A stretch of 6,088 nucleotides of DNA, taken from a virus. Taxonomy: Duplodnaviria > Heunggongvirae > Uroviricota > Caudoviricetes. Shown here piece after piece: positions 1 through 6,088 of this stretch. Made by a program: the position numbers and the translations under genes. How positions within the stretch are numbered: position 1 is the stretch's first letter; the number at the start of each line of letters is the position of its first letter. Below the pieces are notes generated by a model. The model was given only the letters and a program-made list of their open reading frames with translations, did not search any database and was not told the origin of the DNA. Location of the stretch: positions 1 through 6,088 of IMG/VR virus record IMGVR_UViG_2526164631_000022; one strand, 5' to 3'.

Positions 1-1616
1 CGCCCGATGGAGGATGTACTGGCCGACCTTTATAAAGCCACCCGCAAATACGGGGAAGTTGACCGGGTATCGTTCTTTAAGGATATTGCCGGAGAAGAGG
101 CTTTCACATCATTTATGGCCCTCGTTGATGCGGCAGGTGACGGCTCCTTACCCAAACTGAGAAAAGAACTTGAAGGCGCGCGCGGTGAGGCTGAACGCAC
201 AGCAAAGGTTATGGCCAACAACCTTGACGGCGATCTGAAATCACTCGGCAGTGCATGGGAAGGGGTGCGCATCCGCATTGCAGATCTGATTGACGGTCCG
301 CAGCGTTCTGTCACGCAGTGGCTCACGCGGGTGGTATCGAAGGTGACGGCGCTGGCGCAGGCCCATCCGGCACTGACGCGCCAGCTACTGGTTGCAGGCG
401 GTGCTCTGCTGGCAATGACTGCAACCATAGGCTCGTTGTCGCTGGCTATTGGTGTGCTTGCTGGCCCACTGGCAAAACTGCGTCTTGGTTTTTCCCTCCT
501 GACCGGATCATTGAATGTTGTCAGGGTTCTGCCTGCATTATGGGGAATGGTGACGGGTTCCATTTCGTTACTGGGAGGCGCTATCGGGGCGCTGTTCAGT
601 CCGGTCGGATTGATTGCTGCTGCGTTTGTGGCTGCGGCGGTTCTCATCTGGAAATACTGGGAACCCATCAAGGCGTTTTATGCAGGGGTGTTCAGTGGGA
701 TTATGGAGCGGCTGGCTCCGTTGCGCGAAACCTTTGAACGGTTTGGCCCTGTTTTTGACGCAATCGGAAGCGGGATCAGCCAGGTGTTTAACTGGTTTAA
801 ATCGCTGCTGTCACCGATGGAGTCCAGCAAGGAAACGCTGGATAAATGTACCAGTGCTGGCGAGATATTCGGTAACGTTCTTGGCGGTGCGTTACAGCTT
901 GTTCTGACACCTGCAAAAATGCTACTGGATACGCTGGCGTGGATACTTGAAAACTTGGCGTCCTTCCGGATGAAGCGGAAAGGGCGCGCAAGAAATCGAA
1001 GACGCACAGCGTGCGGCCATTCTTCAGGACAAGGTTGCCTTGCTTCAGGGGGACCTGGCGAAAATCAATCCGCCGAAGCCTGTGGAAAATGGCAATGGCA
1101 CCGGAGGTGATAAACCCAAAGACAACAAACCACTCACAGACAGCAATACCGGTACGCTACGCAGACTCAGCAAAATTGCTGATAACACAGGTAAGCTGGT
1201 TGATGAGCGAAAAACGCATTGGCCCCGGTGATATTGTCTTTAAGAACCTGCCCCGCGCACTTGCTGTTCGTGGGGAGTGGCAGGAGCGGAAGATTGCGCA
1301 GGTCAGTAAGCCTGCCCCCGCAATTACTATCACACCCGTGGTTCCGGCTCCGCTGCCTCCGGCGCTGGTCCCTGTTGTTGCGGCCAGCTCCCGCCCGGTG
1401 GCGGAGGCTATACGATCGCCAGTGGCATCAGTTCCTGCAAATTCCCGTAACCGGGAGCCTGTTGCCTCCGGATTTGGCGGTGAAATTCATGTTCATCTGC
1501 ATAACGTTGTTACACAGAATCCCCGCGGACTGGCGAAACTGGTCGGTGAAATGGTCAGGGCAGAAATGGAACGGCGCGCCCGTGCCGGACGTGGCAGTTT
1601 TTACGATAAAGATTGA
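1..1616 (+). pseudogene. Phage tail tape-measure protein (P2 gpT-like), 5'-partial (enters from upstream of window); reading frame broken at least twice near ~965-995 and ~1210-1220
   Basis: Frame 1 (1..~970) translates to a typical tape-measure sequence with long Gly/Ala/Leu-rich hydrophobic stretches (e.g. LLVAGGALLAMTATIGSLSLAIGVLAGPLAKL). Plausible protein sequence then continues in frame 2 (~974..1228, ...EIEDAQRAAILQDKVALLQGDLAKINPPKP...) and again in frame 0 (~1216..1616, ...IGPGDIVFKNLPRALAVRGEW...RGSFYDKD*). The frame-1 continuation past ~970 is Arg-rich and looks out of frame. The breaks coincide with short homopolymers (TTCC ~964, AAA ~993, A5 at 1210-1214). This is either a genuine pseudogene or homopolymer sequencing errors; the sequence alone cannot decide. 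Confidence 0.55.
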
Positions 1617-1622
1617 GGAGTC

Positions 1623-2117
1623 ATGGCCATGATGATGATCTACGGCATGTTTGTTTTTGAGCTGCGCACATTGCCGCATCAGCAGTTACAGCAAAACAAA
1701 AGCTGGCGGCATGTGAAAAATGAACGCGTAAACCGCTCAGCAAGCTGGCAGTATATCGGCGCAGGTGATGATCGCATCGTGCTTTCCGGCGTGCTTTATC
1801 CTGAAATTACAGGTGGCGAAGTGTCGCTTTCGTTGCTGACCACGCAGGCATATACAGGACGCCCCTGGCCTCTGATTGATGGTGTCGGGCAGATTTACGG
1901 CATGTATGTACTGACTGAAACGAATACGACCCGTTCGAGTTTGATCGCTACGGCAAGGCGAAAAAAGATAGAGTTTTCACTGACTCTTGAACGCTGCGAT
2001 GAGGATTTGCGGGAACGCCTGCAATCCTCATCGTTCAGTGATATGCTGTCCGGCTTCAAAGATAAGGTCACATCATCCCTTAACAGCGCGGCCAGCTCCG
2101 TTAAAGGGCTGTTCTGA
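1623..2117 (+). CDS. Phage tail protein, P2 gpU-like
   Basis: 164-aa ORF directly after the tape-measure stop, with GAGGAG at 1615-1620 upstream. ATG at 1623, 1629, 1632 and 1635 are all possible starts. The sequence (MMIYGMFVFELRTLP...SASWQYIGAGDDRIVLSGVLYPEITGG...PWPLIDG.GQIYGMYV) fits my recollection of the P2 gpU family. T-then-U gene order matches P2-like tail operons. Confidence 0.7.
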   Translation: MAMMMIYGMFVFELRTLPHQQLQQNKSWRHVKNERVNRSASWQYIGAGDDRIVLSGVLYPEITGGEVSLSLLTTQAYTGRPWPLIDGVGQIYGMYVLTETNTTRSSLIATARRKKIEFSLTLERCDEDLRERLQSSSFSDMLSGFKDKVTSSLNSAASSVKGLF

Positions 2118-2126
2118 TTTAACACA

Positions 2127-2159
2127 AAAACCGCTAATGGCCAGATTAGCGGTTATTTT
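2127..2159. terminator. Bidirectional rho-independent terminator between convergent gpU-like gene and invertase gene
   Basis: Perfect 10-bp stem aaccgctaat (2129-2138) / attagcggtt (2145-2154) with 6-nt loop ggccag. It is followed on the + strand by ATTTTGTTT and on the - strand by TTTTTGTGTT. The invertase stop codon (2146-2148) lies in the stem. Confidence 0.55.
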
Positions 2160-2736
2160 GTTTACTCTTCTCAATTGTTCCACTTGATTCTCCTGCGGGG
2201 TGGTAACGATAAATTGTCGATATACCAATGCTGTAAATTATTGCCAGTTGTTTTCTGTCGTGACCGTTTTTAATCAGCCTTGCTATTTGCTCATGCTGTT
2301 CTTTTGTCAGCTTCGGTCGACGTCCGCCTGTGCGCCCCCGTGCGCGCGCTGCCGCCAGTCCGGCCAGTGTACGTTCAACAATTAATTCACGTTCCATTTC
2401 AGCCAGGGCACCCATCACGTGGAGAAAAAACGACCCCATTGGAGAAGATGTATCTATGCTGTCGGTCAGACTGCGAAAATTAATCCCTCGCTCCCGTAGT
2501 TCCCCGACGAGAGAAATCAGATGTTTCATGCTTCGCCCGAGGCGATCCAGTTTCCAGACAACCAGCGTGTCACCTTTTTGAAGCTGCTTTAAAGCGCGTT
2601 TTAATCCCGGTCGGTCTGTCTTTGTTCCGCTTAATTTATCTTCAAATATCTGTTCACATCCTGCACAAACAAGAGCGTTTCGTTGCAGGTCTGTATTCTG
2701 GTCATTTGTTGATACCCTTACATAACCAATCAGCAC
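2146..2736 (-). CDS. pin: Site-specific DNA invertase, serine recombinase of the Gin/Pin/Cin/Hin family
   Basis: Translation MLIGYVRVSTNDQNTDLQRNALVCAGCEQIFEDKLSG...DTLVVWKLDRLGRSMKHLISLVGELRERGINFRSLTDSIDTSSPMG...ALAEMERELIVERT... has the YVRVSTNDQ catalytic-serine motif and a C-terminal helix-turn-helix (KQLAIIYSIGISTIYRY). Preferred start is GTG at 2734-2736 with GGGAG 7 nt upstream, giving the canonical MLIGYVRVS N-terminus. The ORF track's TTG start at 2754 adds 6 non-conserved residues and is probably not used. Confidence 0.9.
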   Translation of the reverse strand: MLIGYVRVSTNDQNTDLQRNALVCAGCEQIFEDKLSGTKTDRPGLKRALKQLQKGDTLVVWKLDRLGRSMKHLISLVGELRERGINFRSLTDSIDTSSPMGSFFLHVMGALAEMERELIVERTLAGLAAARARGRTGGRRPKLTKEQHEQIARLIKNGHDRKQLAIIYSIGISTIYRYHPAGESSGTIEKSKQNNR

Positions 2737-2790
2737 ACTGAATCTCCCGTCCAAAAGCGCAAATCATGCCATGCAGGCCAGAAACGGCCA

Positions 2791-2816
2791 TTATCTAAAA
2801 CCTCGGTTTACAGGAA
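2791..2816. repeat. Left crossover site for the invertase (gix/pix/cix-like, 26 bp: TTATCTAAAACC-TC-GGTTTACAGGAA)
   Basis: Two imperfect 12-bp inverted half-sites flank a central TC dinucleotide, matching remembered gix/hix architecture. 24 bp (2801-2824) are identical to the reverse complement of 5710-5733. Located about 55 bp upstream of the invertase start. Confidence 0.8.
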
Positions 2817-3761
2817 ACGGTAAATCAGGCTTCTGGCGCATTACAGAAAAACCAGAACGGCGCAGATATTCCGGGAAAAGATATCTTCACCAAAAATATT
2901 GGTGCCTGCCGCGCATATAGCTCATGGGTGGATATTGGTGGCGATAGTCAGGTCTGGACAACCGCGCAATTTATTTCGTGGCTGGAGAGTCAGGGAGCAT
3001 TTAACCATCCTTACTGGATGTGCAAAGGCTCATGGGCTTATGCAAATAATAAGGTCATTACAGATACAGGTTGCGGAAATATTTGTCTTGCAGGTGCTGT
3101 GGTGGAAGTTATTGGCACTCGCGGCGCAATGACCATACGCGTTACTACGCCGAGCATGTCCAGCGGTGGCGGAATTACTAACGCTCAATTCACTTATATT
3201 AATCATGGTGATGCTTATGCTCCTGGCTGGCGAAGAGACTACAACACGAAAAACCAGCAGCCTGCATTTGCTTTAGGGCAAACAGGAAGCAGGGTTGCAA
3301 ATGATAAAGCTGTTGGCTGGAACTGGAATAGCGGCGTTTATGATGCAGATATCAGTGGCGCATCGACATTAATCCTCCACTTCAATATGAATGCGGGGAG
3401 TTGCCCTGCTGTACAGTTCCGCGTGAATTATAAGAACGGCGGTATCTTTTATCGTTCAGCGCGTGATGGTTATGGCTTTGAAGCTGACTGGTCAGAGTTT
3501 TACACCACAACCCGCAAACCCTCTGCGGGGGATGTTGGTGCATATACGCAGGCAGAATGTAACTCAAGGTTTATTACAGGTATTCGCCTGGGCGGTCTGT
3601 CATCTGTTCAGACATGGAATGGTCCCGGCTGGTCTGACAGGTCAGGTTATGTCGTTACGGGTTCAGTTAACGGAAACCGTGATGAATTAATTGATACAAC
3701 TCAGGCAAGGCCAATTCAGTATTGCATTAATGGAAGGTGGTATAACGCGGGGAGTATTTAA
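2799..3761 (+). CDS. Alternative tail-fibre C-terminal (receptor-binding) cassette, currently in the unexpressed orientation; no own start codon, frame open from 2799
   Basis: The frame is open from just after TAA at 2796-2798 and reads NLGLQETVNQASGALQKNQNGADIPGKD...VDIGGDSQVW...RPIQYCINGRWYNAGSI*. The ORF track's 2928 start is only the first GTG in this frame. Its first ~9 residues are encoded by the crossover site and match the LGLQETVN encoded at the right site. The C-terminal ...INGRWYN motif parallels the other fibre ORF. Confidence 0.75.
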   Translation, partial: NLGLQETVNQASGALQKNQNGADIPGKDIFTKNIGACRAYSSWVDIGGDSQVWTTAQFISWLESQGAFNHPYWMCKGSWAYANNKVITDTGCGNICLAGAVVEVIGTRGAMTIRVTTPSMSSGGGITNAQFTYINHGDAYAPGWRRDYNTKNQQPAFALGQTGSRVANDKAVGWNWNSGVYDADISGASTLILHFNMNAGSCPAVQFRVNYKNGGIFYRSARDGYGFEADWSEFYTTTRKPSAGDVGAYTQAECNSRFITGIRLGGLSSVQTWNGPGWSDRSGYVVTGSVNGNRDELIDTTQARPIQYCINGRWYNAGSI

Positions 3762-3763
3762 TT

Positions 3764-4297
3764 ATGATGCACTTAAAAAACATTACTGCTGGCAACCCTA
3801 AAACAAAAGAGCAATACCAGCTAACGAAACAATTTAACATCAAATGGCTTTATTCAGATGATGGAAAAAACTGGTATGAGGAACAAAAGAACTTTCAGCC
3901 TGATACGTTGAAAATGGTCTATGACCGTAACGGCGTTATTATTTGTATTGAAAAGGATGTTTCAGCAATTAATCCAGAAGGCGCAAGCGTCGTTGAATTA
4001 CCTGATATTACAGCAAATCGCCGGGCTGATATTTCGGGTAAATGGATGTTCAAAGATGGCGTAGTGATAAAGCGAACTTATACCGGGGAAGAGCAGAGGC
4101 AGCAGGCAGAGAATGAAAAGCAAAGCCTGTTGCAACTTGTCAGGGATAAAACCCAGTTATGGGACTCACAGCTACGGCTGGGCATCATTTCCGACGAGAG
4201 TAAACAAAAATTAACAGAGTGGATACTCTTTGCGCAGAAAGTCGAATCTACAGACACTTCCAGCCTGCCAGTAACATTTCCCGAACAACCTGAATGA
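3764..4297 (+). CDS. Tail-fibre assembly chaperone (Tfa / Mu U / P2 gpG family), partner of the 2799..3761 cassette
   Basis: 177 aa, ATG 2 nt after the cassette stop, GGGGAG upstream. N-terminus [22 protein letters not shown]...DDGKNWYEE is shared with the second chaperone and is typical of Tfa proteins. ...[18 protein letters not shown]... is also shared. Confidence 0.85.
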   Translation: MMHLKNITAGNPKTKEQYQLTKQFNIKWLYSDDGKNWYEEQKNFQPDTLKMVYDRNGVIICIEKDVSAINPEGASVVELPDITANRRADISGKWMFKDGVVIKRTYTGEEQRQQAENEKQSLLQLVRDKTQLWDSQLRLGIISDESKQKLTEWILFAQKVESTDTSSLPVTFPEQPE

Positions 4298-4300
4298 GAC

Positions 4301-4329
4301 AAGGCCCGATAGCGGGCCTTAATTTTTAT
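4301..4329. terminator. Hairpin plus T-tract between the two convergent chaperone genes (probable terminator)
   Basis: Perfect 8-bp stem aaggcccg (4301-4308) / cgggcctt (4313-4320) with loop atag, followed by AATTTTTATT on the + strand. It sits at the centre of the invertible segment, so it is positioned the same way in either orientation. Confidence 0.45.
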
Positions 4330-4853
4330 TCAGGCTTTTGTGGCCATTCAGGATTTGCCGTATCCACACGGCTGACCAGAACACTGTAGCGTTCCCATGC
4401 TTCCAGTCGTGTGCGCTCCTCGTCTGTTGCCATATTCAGCCTGGCAGCGCGTTCCAGTGGCTGGATGACTGATTCAGTTTCGGAAAGCAATGCGGCCTTT
4501 TGTGATTCGGCCTGTTGTTGCTGTTCGTCTGCTGTATAAATCCGCTTAACCACAGTTCCGTCCTTAAACATCCACTTCCCTGAATCATCGGCACGACGAT
4601 TGACTGTTATATCTGGAATCTCAACGACACTAAAGCCTTCGGGATTAAGCGTTGAGGCATCTTTGGTTATGGCAACAATAATATTATTTTCGTCGTAAAC
4701 AATCTTTATGGTGTCTTCCTGAAAGCTATTTACTTCCTCATACCAGTTTTTACCGTCTTCTGTATATAACCAGATAACATCAAAATTCTTTGTTAGCTGA
4801 TATTGCTCTTTTGTTTTTGGATTTCCTGACTTAATATTTTTTAAATGCTGCAT
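4326..4853 (-). CDS. Tail-fibre assembly chaperone (Tfa family, lambda-Tfa-like C-terminus), partner of the currently expressed fibre tip
   Basis: 175 aa, ATG 3 nt after the fibre stop with AGGTG upstream. N-terminus [22 protein letters not shown]...EDGKNWYEE. The C-terminus ...[27 protein letters not shown] resembles the lambda Tfa C-terminus as I remember it. Confidence 0.85.
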
Positions 4854-4856
4854 AAT

Positions 4857-6020
4857 TTACACCTGTGCTACGTTATACCATGTGCCATTGATGTATTTTT
4901 GTATTGGTCTGAAGATGGCTTCATCATCGCCATCTACTTCACCAATGATTCTTAATCCGGTAATTGCGTGTCCGGCTTTTTCATAACGACCACCACGCGC
5001 CATCAATTGAACAACTCGCGTACCCAGGCGAACATCTTTTACATAGCGTGAATCAAAATTCCCCCAGTTGCTGGGCTGTATCTGACCGTTAACAGAAAAT
5101 ATTACCGAGTTATCTGTATTTCGCTGGCTATAGAAATGCCATCCTGCCTCATCGCCTAACTCTGCAACTACTGGACGGGTTGAAGCACCCCATAAATTAA
5201 ACGTTACATTCTTTGTGGAGGTGTTGGAGCTGGATAGCGAGATTTTTTTACTATCACCTGCCTGAATGTTTTTAAAAGCAATAGCAACTCCATTCTGAAA
5301 GCGGAATACTCGCTGACTATTAGCGTAAACATCAAGAATACCGTCTCCATTCTGTTTAAATCCGGTATCATTATCACCAAGAACAATAGAGCTACCACCT
5401 AACGCATTCGTCGTACCAACTCCAAGGCTGCCATTAATGACGGCATTAACAAGAATATTTAGTGCATCCCATTTCAGCGTCATCAGGTCTTTTGTTGTGG
5501 TGCTTTGTTTGCTTCTCCATTTGAAATATTCATTGCCGTTGTCGCCTGTTTCAAACCACATGTATGAATCAGTATCGCTGTCGGCATCATTTTTAAATCC
5601 AATCTTCGCCCAGTCAGTATTTCGAATCCAGGCAAGGATTGAGTCGTTTTCAAAAGTAAGCCCACCGGACAAGGTATCGCCATTCTTTTGCACGGCGTTC
5701 CTGGCCCTGTTTACCGTTTCCTGTAAACCGAGGTATTCGATAACAGCGGCAACGGTCGATTTCGCAAGAATATCCCGCCCGACTTTTGTCAGGGTTGCCA
5801 GGCTGGCGACATCATTCCCCGTAAAATACGGAAACTTGTCTGCCGCAGTAGCAAGCCCGGCCAGCGCCGTCAGGGTGGCATCTTTCGGTTGCTTACCCGC
5901 AAGCGCTTTAGTCATGGTGGTCGCAAAATTCGGGTCGTTTCCCAGCGCCGCCGCTAACTCGTTCAACGTATTCAGTGCGTCAGGCGACGAGTCTACAAGT
6001 GCGGCAATCGCGGCCATCAC
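4857..6020 (-). CDS. Tail-fibre protein, currently assembled form: constant N-terminal ~96 aa (6020..5733, outside the segment) fused to variable C-terminus (5729..4857, inside the segment)
   Basis: 387-aa ORF. The start is GTG at 6018-6020 or, more likely, ATG at 6015-6017, which overlaps the upstream gene's TGA (ATGTGATGG on the - strand). The ORF spans the right crossover site in frame. Gly/Asn/Ser/Thr-rich fibre-like body ends ...RPIQKYINGTWYNVAQV*. An in-frame stop at 6066-6068 means it cannot extend further upstream. Confidence 0.85.
   Translation of the reverse strand: MMAAIAALVDSSPDALNTLNELAAALGNDPNFATTMTKALAGKQPKDATLTALAGLATAADKFPYFTGNDVASLATLTKVGRDILAKSTVAAVIEYLGLQETVNRARNAVQKNGDTLSGGLTFENDSILAWIRNTDWAKIGFKNDADSDTDSYMWFETGDNGNEYFKWRSKQSTTTKDLMTLKWDALNILVNAVINGSLGVGTTNALGGSSIVLGDNDTGFKQNGDGILDVYANSQRVFRFQNGVAIAFKNIQAGDSKKISLSSSNTSTKNVTFNLWGASTRPVVAELGDEAGWHFYSQRNTDNSVIFSVNGQIQPSNWGNFDSRYVKDVRLGTRVVQLMARGGRYEKAGHAITGLRIIGEVDGDDEAIFRPIQKYINGTWYNVAQV
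5718..5743. repeat. Right crossover site for the invertase, in inverted orientation (TTCCTGTAAACC-GA-GGTATTCGATAA)
   Basis: Its reverse complement TTATCGAATACC-TC-GGTTTACAGGAA differs from the left site at only 2 positions of the outer half-site. It lies inside the - strand tail-fibre ORF, where it encodes ..IEYLGLQETVN... Confidence 0.8.
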
Positions 6021-6088
6021 ATAAGCCGTGCTTGCGATCTGAGTATTATTAGTCCCTTTTTGGCGTCAGTTGGCGTTGTTGGCGTTCG
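6017..6088 (-). CDS. 3' end of an upstream tail/baseplate-module gene (partial, continues beyond window), translationally coupled to the tail-fibre gene
   Basis: Open frame on the - strand from the window edge ends ...RTPTTPTDAKKGLIILRSQARLM* with TGA at 6017-6019, overlapping the fibre start. Only 23 codons are visible, so the product cannot be identified. Confidence 0.35.
   Translation of the reverse strand, partial: RTPTTPTDAKKGLIILRSQARLM

Follow-up and report, generated by a model that had tools for sequence, protein, structure and literature searches.

Apparent frame breaks in a P88-like tape-measure gene from Escherichia coli DEC12A probably reflect a draft contig that blends three near-identical prophages

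Three bodies of earlier knowledge bear on the tail genes of P2-family prophages and on how an interrupted reading frame within them is to be read. The P88-like phages share a gene order in which sheath and tube are followed by gpE/E', the tape measure, gpU, an invertase, and an invertible fibre segment, with the tape-measure protein corresponding to P2 gpT and belonging to TIGR01760 (tape_meas_TP901) and PF10145 (PhageMin_Tail). In P2-like phages, expression of the neighbouring chaperone genes (gpE/E+E') also involves a programmed -1 frameshift. Phage Mu provides the closest described fibre switch, namely the G segment, which is inverted by the serine invertase Gin. Finally, collapsed-repeat contigs are a familiar product of early next-generation draft assemblies, and pyrosequencing miscalls homopolymer lengths.

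The DNA examined here, which we call the window, is a stretch of 6,088 bp that the listing of open reading frames and family searches place in the tail and fibre-switch module of a P2-like prophage. Its DNA is 96-97% identical to that of phage P88, 500465-2, Shae_phiSM, and other Xuanwuvirus (Peduoviridae) genomes. Of 5426 complete E. coli genomes, about 1370 contain prophages that match it at up to 99% identity. The window opens with the 3' part of the tape-measure gene (1..1616, plus strand), corresponding to codons 397-935 of 935 and lying in pieces in frames 1, 0, 2, and 0; this part can be aligned from end to end with intact 2808-bp genes of E. coli prophages and phage P88. Directly after it comes a gene for a P2 gpU-like tail protein (1629..2117, plus strand; PF06995), followed by a serine DNA invertase of the Gin/Pin/Hin type on the minus strand (2146..2736; PF00239 and PF02796). 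Inverted repeats of 34 nt, at 2791-2824 and 5710-5743, enclose an invertible tail-fibre segment (2791..5743) with alternative fibre C-termini and two tail-fibre assembly genes; the tail-fibre gene (4857..6088, minus strand) has a constant part that runs off the 3' end of the contig. The stretch 2357-5750 matches the G segment of Mu and D108, together with gin, at about 93% identity, and shares with them the serine invertase and the 34-nt inverted repeats. Unlike its counterpart in Mu, this G-type switch belongs to a P2-like (P88-type) prophage, and the constant part of the fibre differs.

The preliminary description of this locus, made from the sequence alone, had proposed that the tape-measure gene needs at least two frame changes between 940 and 1240, with a net move from frame 1 to frame 0. 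Three-frame translation and alignment to orthologues bear this out: over 898-1300 the protein-like sequence runs from frame 1 to 0 to 2 and back to 0. Base-by-base alignment of the window to the best E. coli match (L001, in CP077479) and four other references locates the cause in four lost A's, all on the plus strand. The first is at 950..953, where the window has A4 and its closest relatives A5 (over 949-953, all references have one base more), and it shifts frame 1 to 0. The second is at 993..995, with A3 in place of the A4 of all relatives (AAGAAAT at 990-996), shifting frame 0 to 2. The third lies at the G/C junction 1207..1208, where GAGACG has become GAGCG outside any homopolymer, and the fourth is at 1210..1214, where all relatives have A6 and the window A5; these two jointly return frame 2 to 0. 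Thus, several single-base changes are indeed present, as had been suggested, but they number four and not two or three, and one of them is outside a homopolymer. Two of the sites offered as candidates, 990-995 and 1210-1214, proved right; TTCC at 964-967 did not, and the A run at 950-953 and the loss at 1207/1208 had been overlooked.

Over 925-1235, 311 of 315 positions match L001, and the four gaps are the sole differences, with no substitutions. When the four A's are put back, one open frame of 539 codons with a normal stop is obtained, which differs from the 935-aa protein of L001 at three residues. With the breaks marked by slashes, the true peptide reads ...AWILE/KLGVLPDEAERARKK/IEDAQ...KLVDE/TKKRIGPGD..., and the corrected peptide across both break regions is ...AWILEKLGVLPDEAERARKKIEDAQ...KLVDETKKRIGPGD.... 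The smooth peptide drawn earlier (LENLASF-PDEAERAR-KEIEDAQ and VDERK-RIGPG) departs from the one that the orthologue alignment gives and has to be abandoned.

Profile searches place the gene in the tape-measure families. The intact homologue, L001:4114-6921, reaches 287 bits against TIGR01760, for which the cut-off is 28.8, and 199.5 bits against PF10145, with a cut-off of 33.2. For the repaired window protein, the TIGR01760 match amounts to 75.5 bits over the last 139 profile positions, and there is a further match to phrog_28, 'tail length tape measure protein'. In the annotated neighbourhoods L001-L008, the tape-measure gene stands between the gpE/E' tail chaperone genes and the gpU/gpD tail-completion genes. 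We opened homologues in five finished E. coli genomes (one with three copies) and in three phage records, and in all of them the gene is a single CDS of 2808 bp, or 935 codons. Homologues that truly end near the break, with separate genes downstream, were looked for among these as a possible refutation; every annotated homologue examined is continuous. Compared with these P88-like reference genes, the deposited contig lacks four A's, and its frame breaks fall at codons 713, 727, 799, and 800 of 935. The underlying gene is an ordinary, intact TP901-type tape-measure gene of P88 type, and the breaks have no bearing on tape-measure biology.

The window is, base for base, the whole of the 6088-bp contig AIHA01000077.1 (GCA_000250215.2) from the draft assembly of E. 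coli DEC12A. Exact look-up matches several of its open reading frames to EHX19568.1, EHX19570.1, EHX19571.1, and EHX19573.1 of 'Escherichia coli DEC12A', within the range EHX19568-EHX19573. DEC 12A has serotype O111:H2 and the WGS prefix AIHA. Its draft reportedly belongs to the genomes of the 'diarrheagenic E. coli collection' that Hazen and colleagues made public in 2012; a literature search on the DEC12A sequencing platform or on CP077479 found nothing. The closest complete genome throughout the window is that of 'E. coli O111:H2 strain 12A' (CP077479). The name, the serotype, and a near-perfect mosaic fit, described below, lead us to infer that DEC12A and 'strain 12A' are the same strain.

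Matches to the tape-measure region reveal exactly three P88-like (P2-family) prophages in CP077479: L001 at 2.23 Mb, L006 at 1.66 Mb, and L008 at 1.36 Mb. They are 92-98% identical to one another over the stretch covered by the window, and in each the tape-measure gene is annotated as intact, with 2808 bp, 935 aa, and no internal stops on translation. When window positions 1-2800 are aligned with the three copies, there are 303 columns over 1-2790 at which the four sequences are not all alike, and at 290 of them the window equals one copy or another. The 13 unmatched columns comprise one substitution (1528) and eight indel events: the four in the tape-measure gene, two in the gpU gene, and two in the invertase gene. 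To build 1-2790 from the three copies takes at least 14 alternating segments, among them L006 at 12-24, L008 at 84-708, L001 at 711-786 and again at 956-1697, and L006 at 1760-2422, after which L001 and L006 alternate. The contig is thus short and made of multi-copy DNA, with copy-specific variants mixed along it. A majority-rule consensus of the three copies was considered and rejected, as the stretch 956-1441 goes with L001, the copy in the minority there. The left end of the contig was also compared with the point at which similarity between the three prophages drops, and the two do not coincide.

The preliminary description had confined the disturbance to 940-1240 and had taken the fibre switch to be intact. 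Neither view survives, as six further single-base indels unique to the contig lie at 1935, 1961, 2423, 2433, 6061, and 6066. In the gpU gene, a C lost at about 1935 and an A gained at about 1961 form a compensating pair 26 bases apart that garbles eight residues, turning SEFDRYGKAKK into SSLIATARRKK (EFDRYGKA to SLIATARR, residues 104-111). The invertase gene has a similar pair only 10 bases apart, with an A lost at about 2423 and an A gained at about 2433; this changes MGRFFFHVM, a motif identical in all three reference invertases, to MGSFFLHVM (residues 102-105). Relative to the closest allele, L006/L007, these two pairs are the four indels found over 1737-2502, with no substitutions. In the fibre gene, there is one surplus T at about 6061 and another at about 6066, and the last base is discrepant. 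All three lie in the final 28 bases, where such discrepancies would be expected of a thinly covered contig end; the stretch 5744-6087 shows two insertions and no substitutions.

Over the whole contig, then, there are 10 private indels and one private substitution. Spontaneous mutation in E. coli yields roughly ten substitutions per indel in mutation-accumulation studies, so that the tenfold excess of indels is the opposite of the spontaneous spectrum and argues against neutral decay. The location of the indels is equally uneven. All 10 fall within the 3135 bases common to the three prophages and none within the 2953-base single-copy segment (P ~0.001 under uniform placement), even though homopolymer runs of four or more are about as frequent in the single-copy segment (45) as in the shared bases (49). 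The discrepancies are accordingly confined to the collapsed part and the contig ends.

These indels also appear to be peculiar to this contig. A record identical but for three or fewer of the four gaps would reach 99% identity over 925-1235, and none of the roughly 1370 complete E. coli genomes with the gene does so; the 15 best matches to this stretch all span 315 bases, that is, they carry no deletion. Exact-pattern scans of viral and species-representative genome collections did not find the deleted form of 1193-1220. In a search of 153 billion gene positions, the 137-aa fragment of the tape-measure protein turned up on a single contig, and the exact invertase protein of the window was likewise found on one contig only. 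For the gpU open reading frame taken from the ATG at 1623, exact look-up returned no record; the annotation of the assembly starts this gene at 1629 and gives it 162 aa.

Taken together, the comparisons favour a reading in which the apparent break is an artefact of sequencing or consensus calling, in a collapsed-repeat contig that blends three near-identical prophages, and is neither a decaying gene nor programmed frameshifting; we put its probability at roughly 0.9. The frame changes are real in the deposited sequence, and they are very probably not a feature of the genome, which makes the finding an ordinary one. On this comparative evidence, the tape-measure gene in the real genome would be an intact gene of 935 codons in all three prophages. 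The contig shares with collapsed-repeat contigs of early drafts its small size, its mosaic of copies, differences that are nearly all indels and that lie in the multi-copy part and at the contig end, and open reading frame fragments that are found nowhere else. Two traits set it apart from that class: some errors affect bases outside homopolymer runs, and its consensus does not simply follow the majority among the three copies.

We envisage that reads from the three prophages, 92-98% identical, may have been merged by the assembler into one chimeric contig whose consensus tracks different copies at different places, and that thin or mixed support would then have produced single-base miscalls. 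Four of the missing A's would by chance have fallen in the tape-measure gene without compensation, so that several frame changes appear to be needed. These uncompensated four all lie inside 265 bases where the L001-only stretch 956-1697 begins, which would fit a region with very few supporting reads. We infer that the errors arose in sequencing or in consensus calling. The DEC drafts were probably made by 454-era pyrosequencing, with its errors in homopolymer length. A simple model of homopolymer error probably falls short, as the change of GAGACG to GAGCG, like some of the other indels, affects no homopolymer. The suggestion of homopolymer errors in the assembly thus appears sound as regards an assembly error and too narrow as regards its type and extent: the errors are not all in homopolymers, and they are confined to the collapsed three-prophage part and absent from the single-copy segment.

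Alternatively, the gene may be a true pseudogene, in which one P88-like prophage of the DEC12A stock, either a fourth copy or a recombined form of one of the three, lost four A's and was decaying towards a cryptic prophage or a repurposed tail module. The frame is disrupted relative to intact orthologues, by four single-base deletions against every reference, and replication slippage, too, happens at A runs such as those at three of the four sites. Prophage tail genes do decay, as the annotated frameshifts in fibre and fibre-assembly genes of the same module in TW10828 and DS26-1 illustrate, and a mosaic could come from natural recombination between co-resident prophages. We nevertheless regard decay, which the preliminary description had entertained for the tape-measure gene, as improbable. 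The finished O111:H2 12A genome, apparently of the same strain, has just three copies, all of them intact, and the deletions are in no other assembly, so that the disruption was not found in the DNA of the organism itself. Relaxed selection would let substitutions outnumber indels, and the reverse is seen, with 10 private indels to one private substitution. At least 14 mosaic segments in 2.8 kb would be extreme for natural recombination, and the indels avoid the single-copy segment. Compensating pairs 10 and 26 bases apart, together with three discrepancies in the last 28 bases, resemble base-calling errors, and the features of the contig are common to no other genome or contig searched.

Less probable still is that the DEC12A culture of 2012 really had a recombinant P88-like prophage with changes that were almost exclusively indels in its tape-measure, gpU, invertase, and fibre genes, and that this copy was later lost or gene-converted in the stock used for the finished genome; if so, an unusual indel-biased mutational process would have acted on one prophage. 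Programmed frameshifting or transcriptional slippage at the A runs, by which the tape-measure protein would be made regardless, has in its favour the three sites in A runs and the P2-like precedent in the neighbouring gpE/E+E' genes, but can be set aside as next to impossible, since every homologue examined is one continuous 2808-bp frame, and the same frame breaks were sought in independent genomes and not found; the shifts thus lack conservation. A series of four shifts, of which one is not at a slippery run, would moreover give a negligible yield, and indels of the same character sit in unrelated genes of the contig.

The blending of prophages proposed here carries a wider caution. Short prophage contigs from early drafts can mix paralogous prophages and carry indel errors, and these errors imitate pseudogenes, 'cryptic prophage decay', and frameshifting. 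The deposited fragments are now in protein databases as seemingly real variants. EHX19568.1, for example, which bears the annotation 'putative prophage tail fiber protein', is the 137-aa piece of the tape-measure protein, and the invertase with the garbled motif has RefSeq and UniRef entries of its own (WP_000905051.1 and UPI0002510C89).

Several smaller observations concern the same module. PHROGs contains families made only of C-terminal pieces of the tape-measure protein, namely phrog_17114 (388 aa), phrog_5431 (233 aa, starting near the first break), and phrog_38463, which cover residues 152-539 of the repaired protein (window ~460-1616); these families presumably reflect a similar splitting of the gene in the annotation of further phage or prophage entries. 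Fibre, fibre-assembly, and gpI genes annotated as frameshifted or internally stopped occur in the same module of the finished genomes TW10828 and DS26-1 (L003:5807-6768; L004:6772-7304 and 10149-10679), and decay of the module may be genuine elsewhere, to judge from these annotations. Position 1528 holds the sole substitution with no match in the three copies or the other references: G replaces A here, so that residue 511 of the repaired fragment, about residue 907 of the full protein, is Gly and not Glu. The 3' end of the invertase gene (2146-2170) differs from L001 by 4 bp, giving the C-terminus ...SKQNNR in place of ...SQETK; this was considered as another error and rejected, being a real allele common to L006 and L007.

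The strain has a single copy of the invertible segment itself (2791-5743); the other two prophages either lack it or carry a far more diverged counterpart (91.6% identity to L006). An origin of the window in an old hand-read Sanger record, for instance the Shigella boydii pinB/B-segment, had been suspected from the likeness to Mu G and was dropped once the window was identified as AIHA01000077.1. The segment has no indels in the contig and is identical to L001, in the opposite orientation, except for four bases inside the inverted repeats. These four bases, and a paired one-base difference at 2825/5709, are what an exchange of repeat halves on inversion would leave. Because the draft contig and the finished genome of O111:H2 12A hold the segment in opposite orientations, the switch evidently flips in this lineage.
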